This document shows positions 30,968 to 63,805 of a DNA stretch of 64,000 nt, one piece after another. The number at the start of each line of letters is the position of its first letter. Position 1 is the stretch's first letter. The DNA lies in the IMG/VR virus record IMGVR_UViG_3300025121_000776, positions 64,001-128,000 of that record, one strand, 5' to 3'. The stretch is from a virus. Below the pieces are notes generated by a model. The model did not search any database. It saw nothing but the letters and a program-made list of their open reading frames with translations, and was not told where the DNA came from. The position numbers and the translations under genes are program-made.

Positions 30968-30980
30968 CAAAAGAATAAAA

Positions 30981-31004
30981 AAAAGCCAGGCAATCCTGGC
31001 TTTT
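30981..31004. terminator. bidirectional terminator
   Basis: AAAAGCCAGG / CCTGGCTTTT between convergent genes. Confidence 0.85.
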
Positions 31005-31008
31005 GTTT

Positions 31009-31386
31009 TTATTGTGGGGGTTTATTCTTATCTGAATTTGTTATTGTTGAGTTTGGTCTTATCCCCGAAGTTCTATCAAGAATCACTTTAACGTCTCCCT
31101 TTATTTCTTCTATTTGTTTTATGAATTGTTCATCTTTTATCTGGAAAGAGCCAAGTTTTTCATCCAATTTTTCTTCTACTGTTTGAATAAATTCACTTTT
31201 ATCTTTTTCCATTTGCGATTTATAATCACTAACATCCGCCTTAACATCAAAATATGCAAGTGTAAAAGCAGAAGAAAATAATGTTATTAAGCCACCAACA
31301 ACCCATATAGCAACTTTTACTGATAATGTGATTTTAGTGTTTTCACCAATTGTTTGTACTCCAACCTTTGCTTCAATATCTCCCAT
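31009..31386 (-). CDS. single-TM coiled-coil protein (holin/spanin-like)
   Basis: TM segment followed by a coiled coil; late motif upstream. Confidence 0.5.
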   Translation of the reverse strand: MGDIEAKVGVQTIGENTKITLSVKVAIWVVGGLITLFSSAFTLAYFDVKADVSDYKSQMEKDKSEFIQTVEEKLDEKLGSFQIKDEQFIKQIEEIKGDVKVILDRTSGIRPNSTITNSDKNKPPQ

Positions 31387-31418
31387 GTCTTTTTTTTTTA
31401 ATAAATATTACAAATTTT

Positions 31419-31913
31419 CTAATAAACCACGGAATTTTGCCAAGTTATCAAAATAATGTCATCTGAATTTAAAGATTGAAACATTATTACGAGGTTAACT
31501 CCATCAAAGCTACCGCTTTTAGGGTTAATTAAAAAATATTCTAAATATTTAACATTTTGTAAAACTCCTAAAATATTTGACTTAGAAATGCTAACTCCTT
31601 TCAAATATGTTCCTGCTAAATATCCATAAGAATTATAACTATTACTATAAAAATATACATAATAAGTATATAATCCATTAATTGCATAAGTTGTTCTCAT
31701 TACTTTCGTGTAAAAACATGGGCAGCCAGCGCAAACAGTGCCAAACATTCCCCAATCATAAACTCTTCCGTTTTTATCAACCAATATTTGATACATATTT
31801 GCTTCCGTATTATATCCAGCATCTGATTTATAAGAATAATACTGATTGTGATTTTGAGCTACTCCAAGCAGCCATGTTATTGATAATACAAGTAATAATA
31901 CAAATGTTTTCAT
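31419..31913 (-). CDS. secreted hypothetical protein
   Basis: Signal-peptide-like N-terminus. Confidence 0.65.
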   Translation of the reverse strand: MKTFVLLLVLSITWLLGVAQNHNQYYSYKSDAGYNTEANMYQILVDKNGRVYDWGMFGTVCAGCPCFYTKVMRTTYAINGLYTYYVYFYSNSYNSYGYLAGTYLKGVSISKSNILGVLQNVKYLEYFLINPKSGSFDGVNLVIMFQSLNSDDIILITWQNSVVY

Positions 31914-31915
31914 AA

Positions 31916-33670
31916 TTATAGGTCATAAATTATTTCAAATCCAAAATTCATTGCAAAGTCTTTAATCATAATTCCAGCCTTAGCATTGGCTTCATCTTCT
32001 ATCCATCCTCCTATAGTTTGAATTGTTTCACCCATATCAAAACTTTTTACTTCTCTCTGCCTGTTATGAGTTAATTCGTGGCCAATACTTCTTAAAATGT
32101 CAACTAAAGCCCTGCCTGTGCATCTTATGTGATTAGAGTTTTCGCCTGGAACATATGAAGCTGTTGTCATTATGTATTCGTCTCTGCCCTTATGAAGATA
32201 AATTGACACTGGCTCTTCTATTCCCAATCTATTGCAAACAAAATTTATAAAACTTTTTATTATTTCAACCTTTTCTGGGGTCATTCCTTCAATACCATCT
32301 TCAACACCTAAAATATTTTCTTGCTTATCTCCATTTAATTTAAATTTAAGTTTTTTGTTTGGAGGGTAAGAATAAGAAAAAGTATCACTCTCAAAAACAG
32401 CACGTTTTTTTAAATCTTTTATGTATTTTTTCCCAGTTCCTGGTTTCACATATGCAATTGTCATATGTGGATGATATTCTGGATGGTCATTTTTATAGGG
32501 AAAATTTTCTCTTAAAACACTATTTAACTCATTTAAATCTGGGGAATCAACATCAAATTTTAAAACATCATAATCTTTATTTTCAAATAAAGATATGTTA
32601 TTTAATTTAACTTTTAATTTTTCTTTGTTCTGTAATAATTTTTTTGTTGTTTCCTCAACTTCTTCTGGAGAAACTTTATTGGGAATAAATCCAAATAATG
32701 CTGTAATATGTGGTTTATCTTCTAATCCATATCCAATAGCATCATAAATATCCTTTTGTTCAATTATACCAGTAATTTTATCCCATCCTTTTATATTTAA
32801 ATCTAGCATTAAGCAGCCAAACTCTTTTTTAAATTCTTCTTTTCCTTCTATAATTACTTTTCTTTTATTTTCAACCGATTCAGCCACTTGTTCTTTTTCT
32901 GCTAAAGATAAAGAAGAATCAAAAGCGGCTTTTTTAATATTGGAAAGTTTTTCAAGATAATCAGCTTTTCTAATAACTTTAAAAGCAAGATTTTCTACAG
33001 AGTATTCTCCTCCTTGTTCTAAACCAGAATTTCTAAGTTTTTTTAGCTTATCTTTTATTTTTTCAGCTTTAGCTAAAAGTTCCTTTTCATCATTAATTTG
33101 TTCCAAACTATCAATATCATTCATTATTGTAGCTGCCTTTTCTTTAATTGCAACTTCATCAATATCTTTTGTGTATTTTTCTGGCTTTTGAACCCATTCG
33201 TTTTTTAAAACACTATAAACGCCTTTTGAAGAAAACAAAGTTTCTTCATCTTTTGCAAATAATTCTACTTCAAAGCCTTTTATTTTGATATCATGTTCAT
33301 CATTCCACAAGGATTTCTTTGCGACAATATATTCTTGAAGGAATTCCATTGGCTCATTCATTGATTCTAAATCAAGAATTAAGTGAATATCAATATCACT
33401 CATCAAAGTCCAGTTGTAATTAGCTAAGCTTCCAGTAAAAATTACATCTTTTAATTTACAGTTTAATTTTAAATATTCTTTAAAAGCCTTAGCAATTTTT
33501 AATATCGTAAGTCTTGCATCTTTTTTTAATTTCTCTCCATCCCAAATTTCAGCGTTTAAAGTGTCTTTTGGCTCATTTACTTGCACATCAATATCGCTGG
33601 GGGAAATAATCTCTTCAAGAAAACTAAAACTTCTAGTTAAAATATATGGATTTTTTTTCTTTGACTTCAT
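31916..33670 (-). CDS. nucleotidyltransferase - 2H phosphoesterase (Acb1-like) - HExxH domain fusion
   Basis: GSLANY...SDIDIH...VELF (pol-beta NTase); PHITAL and PHMTIAY (two HxT motifs); SIGHELTH. Confidence 0.8.
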   Translation of the reverse strand: MKSKKKNPYILTRSFSFLEEIISPSDIDVQVNEPKDTLNAEIWDGEKLKKDARLTILKIAKAFKEYLKLNCKLKDVIFTGSLANYNWTLMSDIDIHLILDLESMNEPMEFLQEYIVAKKSLWNDEHDIKIKGFEVELFAKDEETLFSSKGVYSVLKNEWVQKPEKYTKDIDEVAIKEKAATIMNDIDSLEQINDEKELLAKAEKIKDKLKKLRNSGLEQGGEYSVENLAFKVIRKADYLEKLSNIKKAAFDSSLSLAEKEQVAESVENKRKVIIEGKEEFKKEFGCLMLDLNIKGWDKITGIIEQKDIYDAIGYGLEDKPHITALFGFIPNKVSPEEVEETTKKLLQNKEKLKVKLNNISLFENKDYDVLKFDVDSPDLNELNSVLRENFPYKNDHPEYHPHMTIAYVKPGTGKKYIKDLKKRAVFESDTFSYSYPPNKKLKFKLNGDKQENILGVEDGIEGMTPEKVEIIKSFINFVCNRLGIEEPVSIYLHKGRDEYIMTTASYVPGENSNHIRCTGRALVDILRSIGHELTHNRQREVKSFDMGETIQTIGGWIEDEANAKAGIMIKDFAMNFGFEIIYDL

Positions 33671-33694
33671 TAAATAACTATTTTCAATAAATAG

Positions 33695-34150
33695 TTATAA
33701 ATTATGAATTTTAAAAAACTCTGCAACTTCTGTTTTTTTAAAACTATAAAGCTTAGTCATACTGCCTTTGTCGCCAGCCAAATTAAATATTTTTGGTTTT
33801 AAATAATCAATCATACATTTTAACTTATGTGTTTCTATATTCCATATTTCGTTAAAATGTAAAAAATAAGTTGTAAAATAATCTGCTTCTGTAACTGCAA
33901 TTCCAGATGACTTTCCTCTACACTCAAATTCTACAACTATATTACCAGTGTTGATTGGATAAATATCAGTTTTAATTTCATATGTTTTTATACAACTCTT
34001 AAATGACATTTTTAAATCATATCTATAATCGTAATTTTTTTCAATGAAAGCATATCCTTTTTGTATCATGAAGTTTTTAACAATATCTTCGCCCCTTTCT
34101 CCTGTTATAACATCTTTTTTAAAATCATATTTTCCTTTTATTATTTTCAT
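33695..34150 (-). CDS. PD-(D/E)XK nuclease family protein
   Basis: GERGE...YDL...YEIKTD; TAAATTTG promoter at 34155-34162 (minus). Confidence 0.75.
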   Translation of the reverse strand: MKIIKGKYDFKKDVITGERGEDIVKNFMIQKGYAFIEKNYDYRYDLKMSFKSCIKTYEIKTDIYPINTGNIVVEFECRGKSSGIAVTEADYFTTYFLHFNEIWNIETHKLKCMIDYLKPKIFNLAGDKGSMTKLYSFKKTEVAEFFKIHNL

Positions 34151-34234
34151 GAAGCAAATTTATATAAAAAAAACCAATTATCAAAAATTATGTTTCATAT
34201 TACTGTAGTCAGGTTAAAGCTGACTAAATGCATA

Positions 34235-34278
34235 TAAAACATAAAAGCCCCGCAGAAATGTGGAGCTTTTATGTTTTA
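34235..34278 (-). terminator. long hairpin terminator
   Basis: 14-bp outer stem TAAAACATAAAAGC/GCTTTTATGTTTTA with an inner CCGCA-GAAA-TGTGG stem. Confidence 0.75.
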
Positions 34279-34290
34279 TTAGTATTTTTT

Positions 34291-34722
34291 TTACCTATTA
34301 TCGTCTTTTGGTATATTATATGAATATAAATTTTGCCATCTACCTTTTTGGTCTTCTTTTACAATATTTTTTTCTTCTGAAATAATATCAAATAGTTCTG
34401 GATTAATTAAAGGATTTCTTAAATCCATTTTCTTATTAACCTTTTTCATTTCTTCTGCAAGGATTTTAATTTTCTCTGGAGAAAAAGATTCACCTATAGA
34501 TAATGTCTCTGGAACTTTAGGTTCTTTTTCAAGTTTTGGAGCTTCTGGAAGTTTATTTACATTGCCTTTTGTTGAATTGGGTTTAGTAAATTTAGGTAGT
34601 TCTGGAACCTTTAAGGTTTTTTTCTTTTCATCCAACACCTCTGCTCTAGATAAATCTTCGTTTTCAGAAAGATATTTCTTGGCACTTTTAATTACAAATT
34701 CTTTAAATTCTTTCTTATCCAT
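34291..34722 (-). CDS. putative virion protein
   Basis: FKEFVIKSAKKYLSE N-terminus; late motif at 34746. Confidence 0.5.
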   Translation of the reverse strand: MDKKEFKEFVIKSAKKYLSENEDLSRAEVLDEKKKTLKVPELPKFTKPNSTKGNVNKLPEAPKLEKEPKVPETLSIGESFSPEKIKILAEEMKKVNKKMDLRNPLINPELFDIISEEKNIVKEDQKGRWQNLYSYNIPKDDNR

Positions 34723-34869
34723 AAGAAAATTTTGTTAAGTTTTTATATAAATATAATAAAAAAATGAAATCCTATTCTCTAGCACTTGGAATTCAATAAT
34801 TATTGCATAATAGTAAAACTTTTTTTATTTTTTTTCGTATAATAGTATAGAAACAAAAATAGAAAGACA

Positions 34870-34947
34870 ATGACAACTAATAGAAAAAACTATTTTGAAG
34901 AACTCATAGATGCTATTGCTATTTTAATACAAGAAAAAAAAGAATAA
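34870..34947 (+). CDS. 25-aa small ORF
   Basis: ATG downstream of TTCGTATAAT (34834). Confidence 0.35.
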   Translation: MTTNRKNYFEELIDAIAILIQEKKE

Positions 34948-34952
34948 AACCC

Positions 34953-35315
34953 TTATTTCATAGGGTTTTTATCACTTATATCAGCAAAAATTAATGCAAT
35001 TAATTGCTGTAAAAAGCTTTGCCTTTTCAGTAATTTTTTATATTCTATTATGATTGCATCTACCAAAGATTCTATGTTGGGATTATGTACTCTTTGGGGG
35101 GCTGATTTTATATCATTAATTATGCTTATAAATTCAGCCACGTCTGTGTTTCTTCCCCATTTTATCCAAAAGTGAATTCCGCCAGATAAAACAATATGGA
35201 CATAGGTTATTTGTTTATTTTCATCTCGGTCAATACTAATGTTTTTTAAAGAAACTTTTTTTTCTTTAAACACCTGTTTATAAGCATTTAATATGTTACT
35301 ATTTAACTCTTTCAT
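34953..35315 (-). CDS. hypothetical protein
   Basis: ORF. Confidence 0.7.
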   Translation of the reverse strand: MKELNSNILNAYKQVFKEKKVSLKNISIDRDENKQITYVHIVLSGGIHFWIKWGRNTDVAEFISIINDIKSAPQRVHNPNIESLVDAIIIEYKKLLKRQSFLQQLIALIFADISDKNPMK

Positions 35316-35316
35316 A

Positions 35317-36708
35317 TTATTTGCTAATAAATATCATTTTTTTTATTTCTTCCGCATCACCAGAATCAATTATAGGCTTAACTCTATCTGGATTTTTAAA
35401 GAATTCCTTTTCAATTCTAGCGATAGCTATGCCTAATTCTCTATCTTTATATCCCAAAGTTTTTAATAGTTCTGATGGTTGAATAAATTCATCTGCAAGT
35501 CTTAATAAGTTTTTTATTTTAACCTTATCAATGTGATTTAAGTTTGCAAATTTATCCATTACTTCTTCAGTCATTGGATATGGTTTTTCAGATATTACAG
35601 GTTTTGCGTTTTTTACCTTTTGCGAGTAAAATTTTTTAATCTCAGAAGCATTATCTTCATTTAAACTTATTAAGCTAACAAGAAAAGCAAAGCAGTTAAC
35701 TTCATCAGAACTATATTTTTTCAAATTAAGTTCAGTACCTATGTTTTTAATATTGTTACGTCTTAATAAATTAGCGGTCATAGCAATTGGATGTCTTTCT
35801 TCTGCAAAAGCACTTAAATCAACACTTAAATTAGTTCCAAATATGTGTTTAAAGAAATCAAAATCCTGTAATAAAGAAAGGAAATGAACTACACTTTTTG
35901 CATTTTTTATACCTTTGTAGTATTCATCTCTTATTCTTTCATCTGAAACTTTTTTACCAATTGGGTCAACCAATGATGTGCCACCAGCTCTAATTGCAGC
36001 AGCAACATTATTTGGAATTTCCGAACCCATTACTGCGGCAAATCTCACGGCACGAATCTTTCGAAGGGGGTCTTCTGCAAATCTGTCTTCTGGGTTTCCA
36101 ACAGTGTTAATTGAGTTCGTTTTTAAATCATTAACCCCTCCCACTAGGTCATGAACTATTCCAATGAATCCCTTATCATTAACTCCAGTTATTTCATAGT
36201 ATAATGCATTGATAGTCAAATCTCTCCTTTGAGAATCTTTTTCAATTGTTTTTTCATACTGAACAGAATCTGGTTTTCTTCCTCCGCCAGAATCACTACG
36301 TAGTGTAGCCAACTCATATTGATTATGAGATTTTGTAACAAGAAATTGGATAGCAAAAGATTCTCCAATATTTAAAATGTTTGAAATAAAATCTGCACCA
36401 GAAAACATTTTTTTAATTTCATCTGGAGTCGCATCTGTAACTAAATCAAAGTCTTTTGGAACAACCAAAGTTTCATTCATGGGATTTTTTGATAATTTTA
36501 TTGAGTTTCTAACAGTATCTCGGACTGCACCTCCAATAATCCACATTTTAAACCCATTTTTGTTGAGCGTGTATTTTATTTTTGAAATATCATTTTTATC
36601 AGATTCTTTTACAGGCATTTCGAGAGCAAAAGTTTTTGCTCCATCAGCTTCTTGTAAGAATTTTTCTAACAATATTTTTTTCACCTTTTTTCTTATTTCT
36701 TTTTCCAT
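35317..36708 (-). CDS. CCA-adding enzyme / poly(A) polymerase family nucleotidyltransferase
   Basis: GGAVRD, DFDLVT, RRDLTINA, EDPLRKIRAVRF. Confidence 0.92.
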   Translation of the reverse strand: MEKEIRKKVKKILLEKFLQEADGAKTFALEMPVKESDKNDISKIKYTLNKNGFKMWIIGGAVRDTVRNSIKLSKNPMNETLVVPKDFDLVTDATPDEIKKMFSGADFISNILNIGESFAIQFLVTKSHNQYELATLRSDSGGGRKPDSVQYEKTIEKDSQRRDLTINALYYEITGVNDKGFIGIVHDLVGGVNDLKTNSINTVGNPEDRFAEDPLRKIRAVRFAAVMGSEIPNNVAAAIRAGGTSLVDPIGKKVSDERIRDEYYKGIKNAKSVVHFLSLLQDFDFFKHIFGTNLSVDLSAFAEERHPIAMTANLLRRNNIKNIGTELNLKKYSSDEVNCFAFLVSLISLNEDNASEIKKFYSQKVKNAKPVISEKPYPMTEEVMDKFANLNHIDKVKIKNLLRLADEFIQPSELLKTLGYKDRELGIAIARIEKEFFKNPDRVKPIIDSGDAEEIKKMIFISK

Positions 36709-39132: not shown

Positions 39133-40332
39133 ATGAGAACAAAATCTTTGGAACCAGTAAATAAAAATTCAATTCTTTGGGCGGATTTATATAAGTTTAC
39201 AATGTGTTGGGCAATTATTAAATTTTTCCCCGAAGCAAAAGTGAGATATGAATTTATTGACCGAAACGATACGGTTTATCCAGATGAATTTGCAGTTGAG
39301 TTAAGAAAAATAGTAAATAACTATAGTCAAAAAAGATTATCTAAACAGCGTAAGGTTGAGTTTGCGAAAGCATGTCCATTCTTGCCAGCTGCTTTTTTTG
39401 ATTTTCTCGAAGGCTACATATATGACCCAAGTGAGGTCGGAATTATTCAAACAGGTGGAAAATTATCAATTCAAATTGCTGGATACTGGTACAGAACTGT
39501 TATGTGGGAAACTACACTAATGGAAGATATTTCTGAGTTATATTTTAATATGACAGGCCAAAGCGATGATAAAGTAGATATTGAGGGCGCCCTACGAAAA
39601 ACTGCAGATAAAACATCTTTATTTCACTTAAATAGCGCACAAGTTGCTGACTTCGGAACAAGAAGAGCAAAGTCAAAAGATATGCATATAGCAATGATTG
39701 ATGTGATGACAAACTCATTAATGTATAAGAATTTTATTGGCTCAAGCAATGTTGAACTTGCACTATATAATGATATTAAAGTAATTGGAACTTATGCACA
39801 TGAATGGGTTTCTGGAATAGGTGCAATGTTTGGATATGCTCATGCAAATAGAATTGCAATGGAAAAATGGTCAGAAACATATAATGGGAATTTAGGTATT
39901 GCTTTAACTGACACATTTACCACAGATGCTTTCTTGGCAGATTTTGATTCTAAATATGCAAATCTTTTCACTGGAGTAAGACACGACAGTAGTGACCCCT
40001 TCGTTTTTACAGATAAAATTATTGACCACTATAAAAAACTTGGTATTGACCCGACTACAAAAACAATCGTTTATTCTGATGGTTTGAATCCAGAAATGGT
40101 TGTTAAATTACAGGATTACCGTAGGGGTGAAATCAGAAAATCATATGGTATTGGAACTAATTTAACAAATGATATTGATGGAGTTAAACCTTTAAACATT
40201 GTTGTTAAACTTCTTGAAATAAATGGAATGGCATCTGTTAAATTATCTGACTCTCCAACGAAACACGTAGGTGACCCAGAAACAATTAAATTTATTAAAT
40301 GGCAGAATTCTCAAAGATTAATGCAAAAATAA
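39133..40332 (+). CDS. pncB: nicotinate phosphoribosyltransferase
   Basis: DLYKFTM, DFGTRR, GTYAHEW, LTDTF, RHDS, GIGTNLT, KLSDSPTK (E. coli-type PncB pattern). Confidence 0.92.
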   Translation: MRTKSLEPVNKNSILWADLYKFTMCWAIIKFFPEAKVRYEFIDRNDTVYPDEFAVELRKIVNNYSQKRLSKQRKVEFAKACPFLPAAFFDFLEGYIYDPSEVGIIQTGGKLSIQIAGYWYRTVMWETTLMEDISELYFNMTGQSDDKVDIEGALRKTADKTSLFHLNSAQVADFGTRRAKSKDMHIAMIDVMTNSLMYKNFIGSSNVELALYNDIKVIGTYAHEWVSGIGAMFGYAHANRIAMEKWSETYNGNLGIALTDTFTTDAFLADFDSKYANLFTGVRHDSSDPFVFTDKIIDHYKKLGIDPTTKTIVYSDGLNPEMVVKLQDYRRGEIRKSYGIGTNLTNDIDGVKPLNIVVKLLEINGMASVKLSDSPTKHVGDPETIKFIKWQNSQRLMQK

Positions 40333-40334
40333 TT

Positions 40335-40928
40335 ATGGCAAGGACAATTGAAATAGCAGAGGAAACAAGGGTATTTAACGGCTACACCAAGGTGGACAAA
40401 GCATCAATAGAAGACACTTTAGAAAATGGTAAAGTAGATAAGTACACCAGAGAAAAGGTTGTAAGACCAAATGCCGTAACAGGCCTCATTTACAATACAG
40501 ATACTGAAACTATTGTTCTTGTAAAGCAATTCAGATATCCAACTAAATTAGGGAAAAGAAGCGGATTCATTTACGAAGCCATAGCTGGAAAAATAGATGG
40601 AGACGAAGACCCTCTAATAGCATTTAAAAGAGAGTGTTTAGAAGAAGTTGGATATAAACTTAAAAACAAAAACATTCAATATTGTAATTGGAGTTTTGCA
40701 ACTCCAGGATATTCAACTGAAAAACTTTACTTTTATTTAGCCAAAGCTACAAACAGAGATAAAATAAATAGAGGCGGAGGAGTAAAAGGTGAGCACGAAC
40801 ACATCGAGGTTTGCGAATTTCACTATCTTCAGTTTAAAAGTATGATGAGTGATTTAGAAGATTTAAAAACTAGATTCTTAGCATACGAAGCACATCACAG
40901 AAAATTATTTGATAAAAAGCAATATTGA
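40335..40928 (+). CDS. NUDIX hydrolase (ADP-ribose/GDP-mannose pyrophosphatase type)
   Basis: KQFRYP; Nudix box GKIDGDEDPLIAFKRECLEEVG; TPGYSTE. Confidence 0.88.
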   Translation: MARTIEIAEETRVFNGYTKVDKASIEDTLENGKVDKYTREKVVRPNAVTGLIYNTDTETIVLVKQFRYPTKLGKRSGFIYEAIAGKIDGDEDPLIAFKRECLEEVGYKLKNKNIQYCNWSFATPGYSTEKLYFYLAKATNRDKINRGGGVKGEHEHIEVCEFHYLQFKSMMSDLEDLKTRFLAYEAHHRKLFDKKQY

Positions 40929-41806
40929 TAACAAAATATAACATAGAGGAATTTAAGTGGATTGATGTGCTAACACCAACAGATATAGATTTAGAAATCA
41001 TATCTAAGGATTATGCTATACAACATACATTGTTGATAGACAGTATTGAATCTGGTCACCTACCTAAATACGAAATGATAGATAATTTAATATTTTTATT
41101 ATTTCGTATCTTTGACAAAAACTCAAAAGAAGGAGCTGATACCATTTCAGAATTAACTGAAAAACTTTCCATATTTTATCGTGATAATATTATTGTTACT
41201 ATACATCGTGAAGAAATTGATTTTATTACGAAAATTACCAAAAAAAATACATGCAAAAATGTTCTTGAGTTATTACTATATCTTATAAACAATTCAATAC
41301 TGTCATTTGAAAAGAGAATAAACAATGTAATCAATTCTATTGAAACAATAGAAAATCACTTGTTTAGCAAAAGAAATTCAAAATATGTTTTACAGAATTT
41401 ATATAAAATTAAAAAACAAATATATGTAATTGATAAAATATTGGATTTAAACATGGACCTAGTACAAAATGTTTTAGAGGATACTAAGATAAATAAAAAT
41501 CTAATTCAAGATGTAAAAGAGACTAATGAAAAATTCCAATTTCGCTCAACGAATATAATTGATAATATAAATAATATTATTAACATTCATTTAGCAATCG
41601 AATCCAACAAGGCCAATGACATAATGAAAATATTGACAGTTATCACATTGTTCTTTTTGCCCGCATCATTTCTGGTTGGAATTTATGGAATGAATTTTAA
41701 CATGCCAGAATTGACGTGGAAATTTGGCTATGGATGTTTTTGGATATTTTTAGTCTTAATGGAAGTTGTAATTTTTTTCATTGCAAAAAGAAAAAGGTGG
41801 CTATAA
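40925..41806 (+). CDS. corA: CorA-family Mg2+/Co2+ transporter
   Basis: MKILT...GIYGMNF...PEL.W; TTG start overlapping the upstream stop. Confidence 0.9.
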   Translation: MITKYNIEEFKWIDVLTPTDIDLEIISKDYAIQHTLLIDSIESGHLPKYEMIDNLIFLLFRIFDKNSKEGADTISELTEKLSIFYRDNIIVTIHREEIDFITKITKKNTCKNVLELLLYLINNSILSFEKRINNVINSIETIENHLFSKRNSKYVLQNLYKIKKQIYVIDKILDLNMDLVQNVLEDTKINKNLIQDVKETNEKFQFRSTNIIDNINNIINIHLAIESNKANDIMKILTVITLFFLPASFLVGIYGMNFNMPELTWKFGYGCFWIFLVLMEVVIFFIAKRKRWL

Positions 41807-54231: not shown

Positions 54232-55041
54232 ATGAAAAAAAATGCATTATTAATTATTGACGGACAGAACGACTTTTGTAGCCCTTCGGGTGCTCTCTTC
54301 GTTCCTGGAGCAGACCATGATATGGAGCGTCTAGCTAATTTTATTAAAAGAAATCAAACAAAAATTGGTTATATTGGTTTGACCCAAGATAGCCATATGG
54401 TTCTTGATATTAGTCATCCCCCATTTTGGCAGGATAAAGACGGAAATTCTCCAAATCCATTTACTATTATTACAGCTCAAAACGTAAAAGATGGAACGTG
54501 GACTCCAAAATTTTATCCACTGGCCGCTCTTAAATATTTAGAAGACCTTGAAGCTCAAGGGGAATTTCCACATTGTATATGGCCAATTCATTGTGTTGAT
54601 GGCAGTGAAGGTGCAGCTATTTTTCCAGTTCTTATGAACTCTGTAAAAGAATGGTCAGCTTCTCAGTGTTTATTTCACAAAATTGTTAAAAAGGGAGTTC
54701 ATCCTTTAACCGAGCACTTCGGCGTGTTTCAAGCAAACATTCCAATTCCAGGCGAGGACGGAACACAATTCAACGACAGGTTAGCAAAAATTCTTAATGA
54801 ATATGATACTGTGTATTTCGCAGGAGAAGCTAAAACTCACTGTACCGCTACTTCTTTAAAACAAGCAATGAAGTTTGATAAAAACCTTGCTAAAAAATTC
54901 GTTATCCTTGAAGATTGTATGTCTCCTGTTCCAGGAGAAGCTGCACCAGGACTTACCTTTGAAAAATTGGCTCAGCCAATCTATGATGATGCTAAAGCTC
55001 TTGGCATTCAATTTGTAAAAAGCACAGATGTTACACTATAA
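54232..55041 (+). CDS. pncA: nicotinamidase / isochorismatase family hydrolase
   Basis: IIDGQNDF, QDSH, WPIHC, KG, AGEAKTHC. Confidence 0.8.
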   Translation: MKKNALLIIDGQNDFCSPSGALFVPGADHDMERLANFIKRNQTKIGYIGLTQDSHMVLDISHPPFWQDKDGNSPNPFTIITAQNVKDGTWTPKFYPLAALKYLEDLEAQGEFPHCIWPIHCVDGSEGAAIFPVLMNSVKEWSASQCLFHKIVKKGVHPLTEHFGVFQANIPIPGEDGTQFNDRLAKILNEYDTVYFAGEAKTHCTATSLKQAMKFDKNLAKKFVILEDCMSPVPGEAAPGLTFEKLAQPIYDDAKALGIQFVKSTDVTL

Positions 55042-55052
55042 TTTTAAAAACA

Positions 55053-55766
55053 ATGGATAACAATAAAGTGAATTTCGATTTCGGTGGTGACGCCGACTTT
55101 AATCCCGAAAATATCGAGGTAGAAGAAACAATCAATGCAGTATTTGTAGTTGACCTGTCTGCCTCTATGGGCGAAGAAGTAACTCTTAAAGGCGGCACAA
55201 CCTCAACAAGATGCGATGAGCTTAATAAAGCTGTTAATGAATTTGTTGAGAATATGTCAAAAAGCCATGTTAAAGACCGTTTGTTAGTATCAACTATTGT
55301 TTTTGATGCAAAACCAGAAGTTCTTACAGGCTTCCAACCCGTAACAGAAATTGAAGAATTTAAACTTACTCCAAAACACGGTAATACCGCACTTTATGGA
55401 GCCGTAAGACTTGGTTTGGACAAAGCTATTGACTACAGAAACTCTCTGTTAAAAACAGGCGTAAAAGCAAAAACTATCCTTTTTGTTGTTACTGATGGTG
55501 AAAACAATGCTTCTCCACAAAGTGATGCAGAATATGTGAAAGTTAAGTTACAGGAACTAAACAAAGAAGAACAGAATATTATGACATTCTCTTCAGTTCT
55601 TTTGGGAATTGGCGAACAGGCTAATTTTAAACAAGCATTTGATGATTTAGGCTTACATGCCCTAGCTGAACTTGGTGATGATATCAGAAAAGCTGTATCT
55701 ATTATCAGTAGCTCAGTATCAAGTGTTTCAAACGGGCAAAACATTTCTCAGAAATTAAATTTCTAA
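55053..55766 (+). CDS. TerY-like vWA domain protein
   Basis: MIDAS DLSAS, T in NTALYG, VTDG. Confidence 0.85.
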   Translation: MDNNKVNFDFGGDADFNPENIEVEETINAVFVVDLSASMGEEVTLKGGTTSTRCDELNKAVNEFVENMSKSHVKDRLLVSTIVFDAKPEVLTGFQPVTEIEEFKLTPKHGNTALYGAVRLGLDKAIDYRNSLLKTGVKAKTILFVVTDGENNASPQSDAEYVKVKLQELNKEEQNIMTFSSVLLGIGEQANFKQAFDDLGLHALAELGDDIRKAVSIISSSVSSVSNGQNISQKLNF

Positions 55767-55768
55767 AA

Positions 55769-56545
55769 ATGTTCGAAGTTAAAGCCAGAAAAGTAGTAAG
55801 GCGAGGGAGAGCTCATGACCAACGTTGTGAAGACGATTCCCTCGTCTTCTCTTATAATCAAATTTCAGTTATTGCAGTATTTGATGGATGCTCTGATGGA
55901 ACGGATTCTTATTTTGCATCTGGTTTATTTGCTAAAATATTAAAAAAAATAGCAATTGAGGAAGAAAATTTTTTTAAACAAATCAACGAAGAAACAAGTC
56001 TTGAAGATATAGTAAATGTAATAATGTGTTCCTTTTTTTATGAACTAAAGAAGGCAAAATATTATTTAAAGCTTGATGATTCAGAAATATTGTCAACAAT
56101 AGTTCTATCTGCCATTAATTTAAAAACAAAACAATCCTTTTCTATTATTATTGGAGATGGAAGTGTTTATGTTGACGGAGAAATTAATACAATACAACCA
56201 GAAAAAAACGCACCTCGATATATAGCTTATTTTCTTGGAAAAAAATATGAAGATTTTTGGAGTGATGATGTTAATAAATATAAAGCCAAAGTAAAAGATA
56301 CAATAGCTGTAATGAGTGATGGAATTGACTCATTTAGACATTATAGCGAAAACAGATATGTAAACGAAACTGAAAAGGCTGATATTATTCATCGTTTTTT
56401 TAAAAGCGGATATCTTCTTGACAATAAAGTTGGGCTTGCAAGAATTTGTAATATTCTTGACAGTGAACATTTTGCTCCAAGTGATGATTTATCTATTGCC
56501 CATATAACTTTCATAGAAATTCCAGAACAAGATGAAACTATATAA
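55769..56545 (+). CDS. PP2C-family phosphatase (TerY-P type)
   Basis: CEDD, FDGCS, GDG, MSDGI, SDDLS. Confidence 0.85.
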   Translation: MFEVKARKVVRRGRAHDQRCEDDSLVFSYNQISVIAVFDGCSDGTDSYFASGLFAKILKKIAIEEENFFKQINEETSLEDIVNVIMCSFFYELKKAKYYLKLDDSEILSTIVLSAINLKTKQSFSIIIGDGSVYVDGEINTIQPEKNAPRYIAYFLGKKYEDFWSDDVNKYKAKVKDTIAVMSDGIDSFRHYSENRYVNETEKADIIHRFFKSGYLLDNKVGLARICNILDSEHFAPSDDLSIAHITFIEIPEQDETI

Positions 56546-58208
56546 TAAAATAGGCACTCTGGTCAACGTTGATGAAAGCAAAGAGATTGCTAGGGGTGGA
56601 GAAGGAATGATTATAGATATGGGGCATGGAAAAGCCGCCAAAATTTATCATGATACCAAAAACGCATCTTTCACCGAATCAAAACTTCAACATTTATATG
56701 GACTTGATAGCTCTGTTTTTATAAGACCAGAAGAAATTCTTTTTTATAAAAACAAAAAAATAGCTGGATTCATTATGAATATGTTGCCTAAAAATTTCTT
56801 TCCTCTATATTCAGCCTTTAGTTATAATTTCTGTGCCACAAATGGATTGACAGATAAAATAAAATTACAAATAATTAAAACCATTATAAAAAGCATTAAT
56901 TCAGCTCACTCAAAAGATATTATTATTGGAGATTTTAACCCCTTTAATATAATGCTGGACGATAAAGGTACCACTTTCTTTATTGATACAGATTCATATC
57001 AAACTCCAGGGTCAGTGCATTCTGGCAAATTATTAGATGATATCAGAGACCATTTAAAACATGGCGTAATAAATAAAGAGAGTGACTACTATGCTCTTGC
57101 GGTAATAGTGTTTAATTTTCTAACTAATATACACCCCTTTAAAGGCTCACATTCAATTTATAAAAGCCTTCCAGAACGTGCAATTCAAAAAATTACAGTA
57201 TTTGATAATGACCCACACCTAATTGTTCCAAAGTGTTATCACCCTATCCAAGACAAATATTTAATGGAACAATTTAAGAGAATATTTAAAGATGGGGAAA
57301 GATTTGCAATTAGCCTTGATGCTACAACAGATATTATTCATGTAATTAATATCGACAAAGTTATTGAAAAAGAAGGAGAATTAACAATTACGCCAATGTT
57401 AAGAAATGTTGAAATAAGATATGTCAATTGCAGTAACAACCTTGCTTGTGTAGCACTTAAAGACGAAATTATTGTTTATAGCGTGAGAGATAGGGGCTTC
57501 TACAAAGAACTTGGCAGAATACCAAGAACAAGTAAAGATTTAGCTCCGCTTCCAACTGATAAAAACTTATTTGTATTTGAAGATAAAAAGTTCTACAAAT
57601 ACGACCTTGACACCTTTCAAAGAACTGAAATGGATGATATGGGTATTGAAAACATGGTTGTTGCAAAGCAATATGGAAATATATTTGTTGTAATTGAAGA
57701 AAATAAAATGTTTACGTTATATTTGGATGATTCTGTTGGAACACACATTAGATTTAAAACAAAAGAAGTGTTCGGAAACAGTTTTAAAAAGTATAATGGT
57801 ATGATGCAAAATTTTGGCCAGAACACTTACTTAAGAGTAAATAATAATGATAATCTCGATACAATTATCTATGATGATGTATTAAGTGATGTTTACCAAG
57901 ATGGAGATATGGGAATTGCCCAGACTGTAAAAAAAGGAAAAATAAATTTCGACCTATTCAAAATTAATGGCCTTAAACTTGAAAAACATTCTTACCCCCT
58001 TAATTCTATCAGACACTTCGGTTATAATCCTGGCAACTTCATTATTATGCCAGAGGATAATCAATTAATATTCCTTAATCACAGCACATTGGAACCAATT
58101 GCTAAGTTTAAGTGTAGCATTGCCGATGAATCAACACAGGTGTTTTATACAAGGGGAGGAATCTTATTGAACGATTCGAAGAATTTATATATGGTAAACA
58201 AAAAGTAG
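56532..58208 (+). CDS. Ser/Thr kinase-like protein (TerY-associated type)
   Basis: ARGGEG, AKIYH, IGDFNPFNI, IDTDSY. Confidence 0.85.
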   Translation: MKLYNKIGTLVNVDESKEIARGGEGMIIDMGHGKAAKIYHDTKNASFTESKLQHLYGLDSSVFIRPEEILFYKNKKIAGFIMNMLPKNFFPLYSAFSYNFCATNGLTDKIKLQIIKTIIKSINSAHSKDIIIGDFNPFNIMLDDKGTTFFIDTDSYQTPGSVHSGKLLDDIRDHLKHGVINKESDYYALAVIVFNFLTNIHPFKGSHSIYKSLPERAIQKITVFDNDPHLIVPKCYHPIQDKYLMEQFKRIFKDGERFAISLDATTDIIHVINIDKVIEKEGELTITPMLRNVEIRYVNCSNNLACVALKDEIIVYSVRDRGFYKELGRIPRTSKDLAPLPTDKNLFVFEDKKFYKYDLDTFQRTEMDDMGIENMVVAKQYGNIFVVIEENKMFTLYLDDSVGTHIRFKTKEVFGNSFKKYNGMMQNFGQNTYLRVNNNDNLDTIIYDDVLSDVYQDGDMGIAQTVKKGKINFDLFKINGLKLEKHSYPLNSIRHFGYNPGNFIIMPEDNQLIFLNHSTLEPIAKFKCSIADESTQVFYTRGGILLNDSKNLYMVNKK

Positions 58209-58209
58209 T

Positions 58210-58698
58210 ATGAAAGAACCTCAAAGCCCCTTACCATTCAAGCAAAACACTTGGGATATTATTGTTTACAATGAAAGTAAAAATGAATATGAATCTATTT
58301 TTGACCCACATGATAAAATGCTTGACAATCTTAAAGATTGTGCATACATTGTAGAGGCAAGTAACAATTACCCCAAAGCAGTAGAACTACTCAGACAAGT
58401 TCTCGCTGGAAAAAACGATACAACGATAATTGAATTGTTTTTAAAAGAAATAGATGCTATTGATGAATTTGGAGACCAAACTTTTACCTCTAATTTTAAT
58501 ATTAAATTAAAAGGGTCTGAATCAGCAAAACACTTTAAAAGTATTTTTCCAAGATTTTGTAAATCTCTTGATGTTGAATGCACAATCACAACAAAAAGAA
58601 GATTTTTGCCATGGAAACCAATTAGTGCAACATTAAGTATTTCGGGTGCCAGATTAAATGTAAAAAAAGCATCACTAGCAATCGAATGGTTATTATAA
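58210..58698 (+). CDS. hypothetical protein
   Basis: ORF. Confidence 0.7.
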   Translation: MKEPQSPLPFKQNTWDIIVYNESKNEYESIFDPHDKMLDNLKDCAYIVEASNNYPKAVELLRQVLAGKNDTTIIELFLKEIDAIDEFGDQTFTSNFNIKLKGSESAKHFKSIFPRFCKSLDVECTITTKRRFLPWKPISATLSISGARLNVKKASLAIEWLL

Positions 58699-58718
58699 AT
58701 TTAAAAAACTAAAAAACT

Positions 58719-59858
58719 ATGCAAAAACCACCAATTAAACTAAGAGAAATTATCTGGGAAATAACTGGACAATGTTTTAATAATTGTTCATATTGTGGCT
58801 CAAAAGATGTGTCTAAAAAAGCCCTTACACACGAACAAATCATTGACATTGCTCAAGCTATTGCTGATTTTCCCCCAAAAGAAATTAACATAAGTGGAGG
58901 AGACCCATTAACTCTTCCAGCTGACCTTCATATTGAAATTTTAAGGATTTTAAAACAGTCAGAAATAGTCTGCAAAATTATTGTTAATCCAAAATCCATT
59001 AAAAACCCATTATCTGCAGCTTTTGAAATTGTTAAAATGTATGATTGGGCTGGAATTTCTATTAATACCCAAAAAGAATTACAAATCTTTGAAGATATCG
59101 CAGAAACTAAAGAATATGAAAATTACACCGTCATAACAAATTTTAACATTCAAAATCTTTATCAATTTGAAGAAATTGAAGCGTTTGTTAAAAAATATGA
59201 TAAAATGTGGACAATTCAATTTACAGTTTATCAAGACAAAGATAATCCACTTGCTTTATACCATCCAGATAATCAAATTGCTTTTGAATTATTACAACAA
59301 AAGGTTAATACAAGTTCAGCAAAAATAGTTCTATCAGACAATATAAGAAATGATATGCCTTGCGGTGCTGGATTTAGCTCTGTAGGCATCACATATGATG
59401 GTTATGTTATTCCATGTTTAAGTATGAGAAGTTGGAGGGATATTCAAAATTTATGTGAAAAAGAAATATATCAAAATATTTTAAAAACTCCTTTTGAGGA
59501 AATTTGGCAAACATCTTTTATTAATGAAAGATTTTGTAAATTTGAATGTTGCAAAGACATATGTCTCAATAAAACTCTCGAAATAAAAAGTTTTGAAAGA
59601 AAAGTATTTGAGATAACTCCAAAGTCTGAAGAAGAAAAAAAAGATTGGGAAAAAAACATTAATGAATTTTTAAAAAAAGTTAAAAAGGAAAATCCTCCAT
59701 TTGATGCAGGGCAAGTTGTTATGTATGGGGTTATTTCTCCAAGAAATTTTCCAGGTGGTGGCGGAGTTGTTATGTATGGGGTCATTTCTCCAAGAAACTA
59801 CCCTCCCGATGACGACAATGGCGGCGGAATTGTTTTAATGTATGGTGTATTTAGGTAA
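58719..59858 (+). CDS. radical SAM/SPASM enzyme with a C-terminal tail of three MYG repeats
   Basis: CFNNCSYC, ISGGDP, CGAG...GYVIPC; tail VVMYGVISPRN x2 plus VLMYGVFR. Confidence 0.88.
   Translation: MQKPPIKLREIIWEITGQCFNNCSYCGSKDVSKKALTHEQIIDIAQAIADFPPKEINISGGDPLTLPADLHIEILRILKQSEIVCKIIVNPKSIKNPLSAAFEIVKMYDWAGISINTQKELQIFEDIAETKEYENYTVITNFNIQNLYQFEEIEAFVKKYDKMWTIQFTVYQDKDNPLALYHPDNQIAFELLQQKVNTSSAKIVLSDNIRNDMPCGAGFSSVGITYDGYVIPCLSMRSWRDIQNLCEKEIYQNILKTPFEEIWQTSFINERFCKFECCKDICLNKTLEIKSFERKVFEITPKSEEEKKDWEKNINEFLKKVKKENPPFDAGQVVMYGVISPRNFPGGGGVVMYGVISPRNYPPDDDNGGGIVLMYGVFR
59715..59858 (+). repeat. coding repeat, 51-nt period (VVMYGVISPRN) plus a third diverged copy
   Basis: GTTGTTATGTATGGGGTYATTTCTCCAAGAAAY at 59715 and 59766; ATGTATGGTGTA at 59838. 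Confidence 0.92.
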
Positions 59859-59888: not shown

Positions 59889-59916
59889 AAAAAATCCTCC
59901 AGTTGGAGGATTTTTT
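59889..59916 (+). terminator. intrinsic terminator
   Basis: AAAAAATCCTCCA / TGGAGGATTTTTT. Confidence 0.85.
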
Positions 59917-60573: not shown

Positions 60574-60628
60574 CATTTTTTAGTTTTTTTCGTATATGTT
60601 AAAAACATGTACAATTAAATCAAAAAAA

Positions 60629-61549
60629 ATGTCACAAGGAAATTCGCTAAAAGCTGTAGTTGTTGCATTATTTAGCAATGCATTTATCGCACTAATCAAA
60701 TTTATAGTTGCATTTATAACTACCAGTGCCGCTATGATGGCTGAAGCGATTCACTCTACTGCAGATTGTATGAACCAAATATTTTTATTAATTGGGTCTA
60801 AGAGAACCAAAAAAGTAGCCAATGAGCAACATTCTTTCGGATATGGAAAAGAAGAATATTTCTGGGGATTTATTGTTGCAACATTATTGTTCTTTGTTGG
60901 GGGTGGTTTTTCTATTTATGAAGGAATTCATAAGTTGTTTGTTCCAGAGCCAATTAAAAATGTTATGTTATCCTTTATCGTTTTAGGAATTGGAATAGTC
61001 TTAGAATTCAACTCGTTTAGAATTGCTTATAATCAATTTAAAATTAAAAATAATTCATCCTTTTACAAAGGACTCATTGAAGTGACCGATACAAATCTTT
61101 TGGTAATTTTACTTGAAGACTTTGCGGCATTACTTGGATTAATAGTTGTTTTAATTACCACTATTTTAGCTTTTACAATAGCTCCTATATTTGATGCAAT
61201 TGGTTCCATACTTGTGGGTGCAATTCTTATTTCAATCGCTTATATGCTCTCTAATGAGCTCAGAAAATTAATTGTTGGAGAAAGCATTCCTAGAGAAATA
61301 AGAACTGATATAAAACACATCTGCTCACAGCATAATAAAATTGTTAAACATGTAAATAAAATTCAAACAATGTTTATTGGCAGAGAAAAATTTGTTCTTC
61401 TTATATCTTTGGATGTTTATGATAATATTTTAGCATATGATGTAGAAAACATAATTGAACACATAAAACTCGATATTATCAAAAAATATCCCAATGCTTC
61501 GGTTATTTATATTGAAGTAAAGGATATGATAAGAAATAATAAAATTTAA
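60629..61549 (+). CDS. cation diffusion facilitator (CDF) transporter
   Basis: AEAIHSTAD, HSFGYGKEEY, LLEDFAA, D in TM5; an alternative start at 60596 is possible. Confidence 0.9.
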   Translation: MSQGNSLKAVVVALFSNAFIALIKFIVAFITTSAAMMAEAIHSTADCMNQIFLLIGSKRTKKVANEQHSFGYGKEEYFWGFIVATLLFFVGGGFSIYEGIHKLFVPEPIKNVMLSFIVLGIGIVLEFNSFRIAYNQFKIKNNSSFYKGLIEVTDTNLLVILLEDFAALLGLIVVLITTILAFTIAPIFDAIGSILVGAILISIAYMLSNELRKLIVGESIPREIRTDIKHICSQHNKIVKHVNKIQTMFIGREKFVLLISLDVYDNILAYDVENIIEHIKLDIIKKYPNASVIYIEVKDMIRNNKI

Positions 61550-62022: not shown

Positions 62023-62612
62023 CAAAAGGAGTTAGAGTCGAAAATAAAAAAACTTTAAGATTAATCAGTGATTTAAGGTCTCTAAATATTTCTTTTTCGA
62101 AAATTGCCGAAATTTTAAACAGACAAGAAATTAGAACTATTTATGGAAAAAAATTTGACGAATCTTTGACTTTTACAAAGTATAAACAAGCAATGAAAGA
62201 AGAAAGAGAAAACGAAGTAATTCCAACCAAATGTATTGAGTGTCAATATTATCGTGAAATGATGTTTACTCCCTGGTGCGCTCATTACCATTGGAACTGG
62301 AAGCCTACATCCAATCTTCTTATTGTTACAAAAGAGAATAGAAACGGACCGCTCCCAGAAAAATGTCCCTTTGTTTTGACCGAGAATAAAACATTGGTCT
62401 ATTTCGATATTCCAGAAAATGGAACTTTTATTCACTTAGATGAATTTATTAAGGGGGTTCACAATGGCACATTTACCGATGAAAACTGCACAGCATTCAA
62501 GTCTACAAGACAAAGAATAACTCATATACCTATTTGTCCCTCAGACGTTTTAAAAAAAGTATATAATTTATCACCGAGCTGTGTGATTTGGTTCCCGAAA
62601 CAATTAACCTAA
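62019..62612 (+). CDS. hypothetical protein with a recombinase-type HTH N-terminus
   Basis: SFSKIAEILNRQEIRT..GKKF; CIEC...WCAH. Confidence 0.6.
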   Translation: MTKGVRVENKKTLRLISDLRSLNISFSKIAEILNRQEIRTIYGKKFDESLTFTKYKQAMKEERENEVIPTKCIECQYYREMMFTPWCAHYHWNWKPTSNLLIVTKENRNGPLPEKCPFVLTENKTLVYFDIPENGTFIHLDEFIKGVHNGTFTDENCTAFKSTRQRITHIPICPSDVLKKVYNLSPSCVIWFPKQLT

Positions 62613-62620
62613 AAATAATC

Positions 62621-63805
62621 ATGGAAGAAAAACAATTAATCGAAAAATTTAAAGTGGCAGGAATAGTTTCAATCAGAGACTTTCTTTTAGAAATGCAAGC
62701 AAAAGGCGAAAAAATAGCAAGAACAGAATCGGGAGACCCCTCATTCGATATCCCAGAAAATGTTAAAGTTGCAATCGAAAAAGCACTCAGAGAAAACAAA
62801 ACTCACTACACCGCAGGTGCAGGAATAAATGAGCTTAGAGATGCCATCTACGAAAAAGTTAAATACGTTAATAAAATAAACATTAACTCAAGAAATAGTG
62901 TTATGGTTACTAATGGCGCTATGAATGCTTTATATACAATATTTCACGCTATAAATAACAATGAAGGTGTTTCTATGTTAGTTCCTTCTCCTACTTGGAC
63001 AGAAACCGCACAGAATATATCAGAAGTTGGGGGAACTCCAATATATTACAATTTTAATCCATTCTCAGATGCTCCCATAGATATTGATGAGTTAGAGGTT
63101 TTGTTTAAAATATACCCCAACATCAAAGCTATGGTGATTAATTCACCTCACAATCCTACTGGAAAAATTCTTGACCTTGCTATGATTCTTAAAGTCGTTG
63201 GTTTCTGCAAAGCACACGATATCTATTTAATATCAGATGAGGCTTATGAACATATTATCTTTGATAATTTAAAGCATGTTAGTCCAGGACAATTAGACTA
63301 TGATAAAATAATTTCCATTTTTTCATTCTCTAAATCCTATGCAATGTCTGGACTCAGATTGGGATGCGCCTGCACAAACGACCCAATAATCTTAAAAAGA
63401 CTTTCTAAAATTATCCGTTGTACAATTAATGGGGTAAATTCTGTTACACAATGGGGGGGAGTATCTGCAATATTAGAAACTCCAAGTGAATACATTGAAA
63501 AGAATTTGGAAGAATATACAAAAAGAAGAGATGCAATCTATGAAGCTGCTTTAAATAATAAATATCTTGAACCAGTTAAGCCAGAAGGGACTTTTTATCT
63601 ATGGTGCAAAATCAAAAATGAATGGAAACCAGAAATCGTTGAAGATAGGGGTTGGCACATGATATTAAACCTTTTAAAGCTCGGTGCAGGAAGTGCTCCT
63701 GGTGAAGTGTTTGGTCCTGAAGGAAAAAATCATATTAGATTTTCCTTCTCATGTTCAATGGAAAATGTTTTGTTGGCTTCTGAATTACTGAATAAATTAG
63801 AATAA
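62621..63805 (+). CDS. class I/II PLP-dependent aminotransferase (AspC-like)
   Basis: GDPSF, HYTAGAG, NSPHNPTG, DEAYE, SFSKSYAMSGLRLG, IRFSF. Confidence 0.93.
   Translation: MEEKQLIEKFKVAGIVSIRDFLLEMQAKGEKIARTESGDPSFDIPENVKVAIEKALRENKTHYTAGAGINELRDAIYEKVKYVNKININSRNSVMVTNGAMNALYTIFHAINNNEGVSMLVPSPTWTETAQNISEVGGTPIYYNFNPFSDAPIDIDELEVLFKIYPNIKAMVINSPHNPTGKILDLAMILKVVGFCKAHDIYLISDEAYEHIIFDNLKHVSPGQLDYDKIISIFSFSKSYAMSGLRLGCACTNDPIILKRLSKIIRCTINGVNSVTQWGGVSAILETPSEYIEKNLEEYTKRRDAIYEAALNNKYLEPVKPEGTFYLWCKIKNEWKPEIVEDRGWHMILNLLKLGAGSAPGEVFGPEGKNHIRFSFSCSMENVLLASELLNKLE

Follow-up and report, generated by a model that had tools for sequence, protein, structure and literature searches.

A phage radical SAM enzyme fused to a tail of tyrosine motifs that may be its own substrate

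As a rule, peptide maturases of the radical S-adenosylmethionine (SAM) type depend on a separate precursor as well as on a recognition element. The question raised by a gene at positions 58719 to 59858 of a 64,000-nucleotide stretch of virus DNA (the window) is whether such an enzyme can instead carry its substrate on its own chain. The window comprises bases 64001 to 128000 of the 186,855-bp IMG/VR virus record IMGVR_UViG_3300025121_000776, a source that bears out the word "phage" in a preliminary description of the locus made from the sequence alone. That description had read the gene as a radical SAM splicease with three Met-Tyr-Gly units at its C terminus, from which the enzyme would excise tyramine. 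Comparison across homologues leaves the one-gene architecture of enzyme plus fused tail-substrate well supported as a prediction, and tyramine excision becomes one candidate chemistry among several.

The open reading frame (ORF) encodes 379 amino acids plus a stop, and its tail agreed letter for letter with the one quoted in the preliminary description. Downstream of the last conserved Cys (C282), the protein runs through a charged stretch, a Pro-rich stretch and then the three Tyr units, so ordered that both the charged linker and the three M-Y-G-V units (at Y336, Y353, and Y375) are where they had been described, the charged stretch being helical and lying between the Cys region and the motifs. 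The features of the gene are as follows.

58719 to 59858, plus strand: whole gene, a radical SAM enzyme of probable SPASM/twitch type with a Tyr-motif tail (ORF; Pfam matches above gathering scores; 110 homologues).
58773 to 58796, plus strand: CX3CX2C (C19, C23, C26), predicted to bind the radical SAM [4Fe-4S] cluster; the Cys residues are invariant in 103 and in 108 aligned sequences.
59361 to 59564, plus strand: putative auxiliary-cluster region from C215 to C282, C-x12-G-x4-C and then CC-x3-C (conserved columns, Pfam SPASM, weak BtrN match).
59628 to 59684, plus strand: charged amphipathic linker helix, residues 304 to 322, followed by a Pro-rich stretch; packed on the core in the AlphaFold2 model.
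59715 to 59732, plus strand: Tyr motif 1, V-V-M-Y-G-V, residues 333 to 338; from sequence, with the Y336 column nearly invariant.
59766 to 59783, plus strand: Tyr motif 2, V-V-M-Y-G-V, residues 350 to 355; a recent duplicate of motif 1.
59832 to 59849, plus strand: Tyr motif 3, V-L-M-Y-G-V, residues 372 to 377, two residues before the C terminus; the unit is also present in the relatives P0002 and P0003.

A search of 5.8 billion proteins returned 110 homologue clusters, with E values from 1e-178 to 1e-27. Nearly all were unnamed metagenomic proteins, several of them on contigs of 100 to 455 kb. At least 17 loci were found on IMG/VR viral contigs, which reached 372 kb, and every complete homologue, wherever it was found, carried one to five copies of a Tyr motif after the Cys region. 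We marked the motif as Y-[G/A]-[V/I/A/T] downstream of a conserved C-C-K-D, with Y-[G/A]-[V/I] as a stricter form. The broader form occurred 216 times in 8.7k tail residues and 5 times in 27.6k core residues. The stricter form occurred 207 times in the tails, where 500 composition-preserving shuffles gave an expectation of 6.1 ± 2.5 and a maximum of 17. The one apparent exception to the tail motif had Y-G-T instead.

The consensus has [V/T/I] at −3, a hydrophobic residue at −2, and M, V, L, or A at −1, ahead of a Tyr that is invariant (100%). The +1 position that follows is filled by G in 67% and by A in 33%, and +2 is V in 90%; Pro is frequent at +4 or +5. The Val at +2 is thus conserved above the Gly at +1. 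The preliminary description had expected YG to be conserved among homologues, and that expectation was borne out for the Tyr only: one motif in three has Ala at the Gly position, and YG is missing altogether from 14 of 97 tails. Among these 97 tails, 48 had YG only, 14 had YA only, and 35 mixed the two, so one enzyme must accept both. Relatives of the YA-only type include L004 and L013. Copy number, suggested earlier as a point to check, did vary: one motif in 27 tails, two in 41, three in 21, four in 5, and five in 3. Tyr-to-Tyr distances peaked at 10 to 13 residues, with variable spacers, and the first motif followed C-C-K-D by 24 to 77 residues (median, 48). At least two Pro residues stood within the 15 residues before the first motif in 81 of 98 members. 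The motif persisted in proteins with core identities of 28 to 31% (P0109, P0110, and L021), and in minimal members (L012, L013, and L019) it was present once, a few residues before the C terminus.

No homologue was found among the cultured phages of INPHARED, and among the genomes of 185,579 cellular species there were two close matches only (L028 and L029), both on short contigs of metagenome-assembled genomes. The L028 contig, binned with a Paceibacterota assembly, has a phage-like gene content of exonucleases, a DNA methyltransferase, and many small ORFs. Since almost all members lie on large viral or metagenomic contigs, with two close cellular matches and none in INPHARED, the family is essentially virus-specific; it is also uncharacterized. 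The family member on the L028 contig (L028:3896-5200) has an N-terminal extension of about 35 residues with an extra Y-A-V motif (T-Y-L-Y-A-V), besides four or five C-terminal motifs. A more distant cellular match, L030, was rejected as a family member; it belongs to an ordinary cluster for a peptide made on ribosomes and modified after translation (RiPP), in which a PqqD-like gene and a complete SPASM domain are present. Two further database proteins, P0001 (269 amino acids) and P0111 (45 amino acids), are 100% identical to pieces of the window gene and probably represent the same gene running off contig ends in other assemblies, not split or truncated variants.

The enzyme core is recognizable by several routes. 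Pfam Radical_SAM (PF04055) matched residues 14 to 117 with 38.8 bits against a cutoff of 29.5, and SPASM (PF13186; TIGR04085 type) matched residues 215 to 276 with 26.1 bits against 21.5. The Cys residues conserved across the family are 19, 23, and 26, of the radical SAM cluster, and 215, 233, 277, 278, and 282. The radical SAM part of the preliminary description is therefore confirmed by both the CX3CX2C motif and PF04055. Its SPASM-type Cys region holds at the level of the Pfam match but falls short of the full seven-Cys pattern for two auxiliary clusters, CX9-15GX4C ... CX2CX5CX3C ... C: the first half, C-x12-G-x4-C, is intact, and the C-x2-C-x5-C-x3-C block is replaced by C-C-x3-C, leaving five Cys. 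From these five conserved auxiliary Cys residues and the C-C-x3-C arrangement, it therefore seems that the C-terminal region is probably a reduced SPASM/twitch domain holding one auxiliary Fe-S cluster.

A profile search against the Protein Data Bank gave two matches only, lysine 2,3-aminomutase for the N-terminal part and, weakly, the twitch region of BtrN for residues 214 to 295 (E = 4e-4). The AlphaFold2 model had a predicted local distance difference test score (pLDDT) of about 95 over residues 10 to 290, and Foldseek placed it nearest to the peptide maturases PqqE, CteB, SuiB, and SkfB, followed by MoaA, viperin, and anSME. The helix at residues 304 to 322 was modeled confidently (block pLDDT values of 92 and 87); its D-W-K-K-type signature is confined to a close subfamily. 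We found no RiPP recognition element (RRE) at the N terminus, where the barrel begins at residue 10, and no PqqD-type match.

The absence of a recognizable partner extends beyond the protein itself. When the ORFs of about 12 distinct viral loci were clustered, the radical SAM gene alone was common to the loci and no neighbor was conserved; upstream ORFs of 152 to 162 amino acids fell into unrelated groups, with no homologous partner across the loci. Stand-alone peptides resembling the tail were sought in 5.8 billion and 1.84 billion proteins, in searches whose sensitivity is low for such short motifs: a word-indexed search among shorter proteins returned only the 45-residue fragment of the window gene, and an exhaustive phmmer search with the 57-residue tail returned the same fragment and an unrelated repeat protein (P0112). 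These results agree with the earlier remark that no separate precursor or RRE gene is recognizable nearby. Because the motif is universal in the family and neither a conserved neighbor, an RRE, nor a stand-alone peptide was found, the reading of the gene as enzyme plus substrate in one, proposed in the preliminary description, stands on firmer ground. In every complete homologue, enzyme core and at least one C-terminal motif are fused. The invariant Tyr of its short motif, the varying number of copies, and the rapid change of its spacers make the tail resemble a multi-core RiPP precursor welded to its maturase, the motifs always lying C-terminal to a core of peptide-maturase type.

We propose that the protein is a phage-specific, self-contained radical SAM peptide maturase that carries its own putative substrate as a fusion. 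The N-terminal 285 residues would form the radical SAM barrel and the reduced SPASM/twitch domain. The helix and the Pro-rich linker would enable the disordered tail to bend back, or to extend to another enzyme copy, and in each [V/T/I]-x-hydrophobic-Y-[G/A]-V unit the invariant Tyr would then undergo 5'-deoxyadenosyl-radical chemistry. The window phage would offer three such units as targets, one of them recently duplicated. We favor, with some reserve, the view that the enzyme modifies its own tail, either in cis or between copies. Counted against it are two AlphaFold2 models, themselves uninformative in either direction, and the biochemically uncharacterized state of the whole family. The window tail had pLDDT values of 47 to 57 in its model, which neither placed it confidently nor showed it docked in the active site. 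The model of a 311-residue one-motif relative, whose linker is short, had an excellent core, with a pLDDT of 69 for the 10-residue block holding the motif and about 50 for its flanks.

What chemistry might the enzyme perform? The profile model TIGR04103, which we take to be equivalent to InterPro IPR026482, matched the window protein over residues 9 to 89 only, with 32.2 bits against a cutoff of 725, a result that speaks against splicing. IPR026482 is the entry for the PlpX subclass (PMC11002830). No NCBIfam model reached its cutoff for the window protein, the top matches being MoaA (35 bits), TIGR04103 (32), and TIGR04133 (31.3 against 425, residues 7 to 279). Across 103 members, TIGR04103 matched 81 (best E value, 5e-11) and TIGR04133 matched 100 (best E value, 3e-15), all far below threshold; TIGR04133 was the most consistent curated model. 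The hidden Markov model comparison with splicease and radical SAM-lipoprotein families that had been suggested as a check on the PlpX assignment thus went against it: both models are far subthreshold, the splicease model covers about 80 N-terminal residues, and placement of the clade by such scores does not put the protein with PlpX. The Ala that replaces Gly in a third of the motifs, the 14 tails without YG, and the five auxiliary Cys residues also count against splicing in particular.

Other features lean toward splicing. Known splice sites are X-Y-G with Met or Leu as X, and PlpX recognizes the core and not the leader of its precursors, which may hold several sites (PMC11414181, PMC10533398, PMC11626197). 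The window unit V-V-M-Y-G-V-I-S-P resembles the verified PlpA3 site A-A-M-Y-G-V-V-F-P, a splice tag deduced from the M5G tag (PMC10533398), including the Val at +2 and the Pro at +5. Spliceases engineered to carry an activating helix at the C terminus are active (PMC11414181), and the modeled order of core, helix, and motifs here resembles the layout of those fusions. From the failed PlpX model, the Ala in place of Gly, and the conservation of Val at +2, we therefore regard tyramine excision as one candidate among several.

A triceptide-like crosslink, made within the same fused architecture and so nested within self-modification, would fit the conservation of the motif about as well. The 5'-deoxyadenosyl radical would take a Cβ hydrogen from Val(i+2), which would then join the ring of Tyr(i), with a change of −2 Da per motif and a rigid, protease-resistant tail as the outcome. 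This would account for the conserved Val, of which splicing has no chemical need; within the motif, conservation is highest at Tyr(i) and Val(i+2), and the residue between them is simply small, G or A. Triceptide maturases, themselves SPASM radical SAM enzymes, join an aromatic residue at i to the Cβ at i+2 in repeated three-residue motifs, and YxdB and YhhB act on motifs that contain Tyr (PMC11002830). As a pattern match only, the tails present a repeated motif of this aromatic(i)-X-X(i+2) kind whose two ends are conserved. Yet none of the curated models for cyclophane or crosslinking maturases reached its cutoff (the WgkB and GDL-motif models gave generic N-terminal matches only), Val is absent from the triceptide i+2 residues given in a review, which are Asn, Asp, Arg, Ser, and Ala (PMC11002830), and the conserved positions −3 to −1 would be left unexplained. 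Taken as an absolute figure and not as a share of self-modification, we judge the crosslink unlikely. Another chemistry at Tyr or Val, such as epimerization or side-chain cleavage, would be a decidedly poor bet.

The tail might also not be a substrate at all. Its Y-[G/A]-V strands could build a small beta-structure or serve as short linear motifs in oligomerization, partner docking, localization, or pseudo-substrate autoinhibition, and the enzyme would act on another target, such as a small molecule or a protein of the host or phage. AlphaFold2 placed weak beta-strands exactly at the three window motifs and left them undocked, beta-branched and hydrophobic residues alternate in the motif as they do in a strand, and the tails are generally rich in Tyr, about 57% of which falls outside the motif. 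A folded domain, however, would be expected to show higher pLDDT values and fixed copy numbers, no precursor or partner gene was found, and an invariant Tyr in one to five copies, with rapidly changing spacers and single-copy minimal forms, looks like a multi-core RiPP; we consider a non-substrate tail doubtful but worth keeping in mind. Far less credible is a tail processed by another enzyme, either a kinase/PP2C pair acting on Tyr or a host enzyme, or released unmodified. In the window phage and its closest relatives, genes for vWA, PP2C, and kinase-like proteins do adjoin the radical SAM gene in the same orientation, but this triad is missing from other viral loci that have the enzyme-tail fusion, and the fusion to the radical SAM core is the sole constant. 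Two comparisons were tried and discarded. Glycyl-radical sites have a motif of the R-V-S-G-Y-A-V type, and the residue before Tyr is never Gly in the family motifs. The phage radical SAM enzyme of thymidine hypermodification is SPL-like and not of the SPASM type (PMC8989533).

The gain of tail units can be followed in the DNA. Motif units 1 and 2 share a 33-nucleotide block, at 59714 to 59746 and 59765 to 59797, with 32 of 33 positions identical and a spacing of 51 nucleotides, and a third, degenerate copy of 17 nucleotides lies at 59832. The preliminary description had seen here a near-exact 51-nucleotide duplication. A recent duplication did occur by our reading also, but its size was overstated, because the complete 51-nucleotide periods agree at just 40 of 51 positions and Tandem Repeats Finder reported no array at the Tyr motifs. 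The closest relatives, P0002 and P0003 (the latter encoded at locus L001), are 65 to 69% identical to the window protein and have two tail units against its three. Judged from the repeat, the window phage has gained a unit relative to them through recent duplication of the 33-nucleotide block.

The 186,855-bp virus record is of the linear class, with a CheckV completeness of 57%, so that the complete genome would probably reach jumbo-phage size. GC content stays at about 30% across the window, and its other genes are of large-phage type, encoding an SbcC-like nuclease, a helicase, a thymidylate-synthase-like protein, a tRNA nucleotidyltransferase, an endolysin-like protein, and nicotinamide phosphoribosyltransferase (NAMPT). 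The radical SAM gene ends a co-directional run (54232 to 59858) that is closed by the following element.

59889 to 59916, plus strand: intrinsic-terminator-like hairpin, a 12-pair stem followed by a T-run (terminator scan).

Upstream in the same direction, genes for a vWA protein (55053 to 55766), a PP2C phosphatase (55769 to 56545), and a 558-residue kinase-like protein (56532 to 58208) form an overlapping run. L001 and L002 have the triad next to the radical SAM gene too, differently ordered, and it is missing from more distant viral loci with the enzyme-tail fusion; it may represent a signaling or conflict module of the phage. The ORF directly upstream of the radical SAM gene in the window (58210 to 58698) lacks a signal peptide. 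In L002 and L004, which are related jumbo-phage contigs, the ORFs in that position (L002:5528-5986 and L004:5523-5996) have an N terminus like that of a signal peptide or lipoprotein, reminiscent of the lipoprotein partner of TIGR04133; homology between them and the window ORF is not clear.

Farther away, the window encodes two metal-ion transporters, a CDF cation-efflux protein (60596 to 61549; 131 bits) and a CorA Mg2+/Co2+ channel (40925 to 41806; 161 bits), and L001 and L002 likewise have the CDF gene in the neighborhood of the radical SAM gene. NAD-related genes at 39133 to 40928 and 54232 to 55041 encode NAMPT (phrog_448), an overlapping NUDIX hydrolase, and a weakly matching isochorismatase/nicotinamidase-like protein; they may be an NAD-salvage set of the kind used by phages against NAD-depleting defenses. 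The region from 29702 to 36708 encodes a 421-residue thymidylate-synthase-like protein, whose excess over the profile length suggests an insertion, and, on the minus strand, a 584-residue RNA-ligase-like protein and the tRNA nucleotidyltransferase, which is of the CCA-adding type. A class I/II pyridoxal phosphate-dependent aminotransferase (62588 to 63805; 163 bits) lies 3' of small unannotated ORFs.

If the proposal of self-modification is right, new radical peptide chemistry could be studied in no simpler setting than this conserved, phage-restricted one-gene system with its built-in multi-copy Tyr substrate, which might also become a compact tool for placing beta-amino ketoamides or cyclophanes in proteins. 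Large phages would then make their own modified peptides or proteins, which raises the question of the host target they hit. By analogy with the ketoamide spliceotides (PMC9811515), the sole basis for the idea, the modified tail could possibly act against a host or defense protease. The fullest version of the proposal, which we offer as a tentative one, is that a single phage gene converts its own Tyr motifs into ketoamide warheads or strained crosslinks, that the tail serves as an effector against a host or defense protein such as a protease, that copy number changes through short tandem duplications, and that the system would be both the first natural radical SAM-substrate fusion and the first virus-specific RiPP-like system.

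How does the phage protein compare with known systems? The tyramine spliceases and their spliceotides include PlpX/PlpY/PlpA, PcpX, RhaX/RhaA, RcsX, and RasX (PMC11414181, PMC10533398, PMC11626197). Like them, the phage protein combines a radical SAM domain with a SPASM-type C-terminal domain, and peptide Tyr motifs are the (here putative) target. Unlike them, with their separate A protein and their Y protein, RRE, or leader helix, it has the motifs on its own chain; the family is also confined to phages, unlike the bacterial spliceotides, and conserves five auxiliary Cys residues. A closer parallel in layout is the engineered PlpXY fusion and RhaX-A-leader, in which an activating helix at the C terminus of the radical SAM protein gives an active single-component system (PMC11414181). 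The helix at residues 304 to 322, docked on the core in the model, stands at an equivalent place after the phage core and may have a similar role, although the helix signature that enters this comparison is restricted to the close phage subfamily. Those fusions are laboratory constructs acting on a separate tagged protein, whereas the phage protein carries putative core motifs on the same chain.

The enzymes of triceptides, or three-residue cyclophanes (XncB, OscB, MscB, YxdB, YhhB, and HaaB), share with it a SPASM radical SAM enzyme and repeated aromatic-X-X motifs, which in their case are crosslinked from i to i+2 and are known in Tyr-based form. They work on separate precursors with leaders, unlike the fused tail here, and no membership in their profile models was found for the phage protein. 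TIGR04133, an uncharacterized radical SAM/SPASM family encoded beside a lipoprotein, matches the core over residues 7 to 279 and is a structural neighbor in the ESM Atlas, but it is bacterial (Bacteroidota), its score is far under the cutoff as given above, and the window holds no lipoprotein partner.

Enzyme-substrate fusions are known only for unrelated enzyme classes, the borosins, with an OphMA-type N-methyltransferase and a C-terminal core, and the burpitides, with BURP-domain cyclases and a repeated core (PMC7878506, PMC12186524). As in the phage protein, enzyme and core peptide or peptides are on one polypeptide and a separate precursor gene is not needed; unlike it, they use a SAM methyltransferase or a copper BURP domain, and their hosts are fungi, plants, and bacteria. 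Our searches of the open literature turned up neither a natural radical SAM enzyme with a fused substrate nor a phage-encoded example. A phage-restricted RiPP-type radical SAM maturase with a fused substrate, as the sequence comparison predicts, would be new, and its nearest architectural precedents would be the borosins and burpitides, built on unrelated enzymes.

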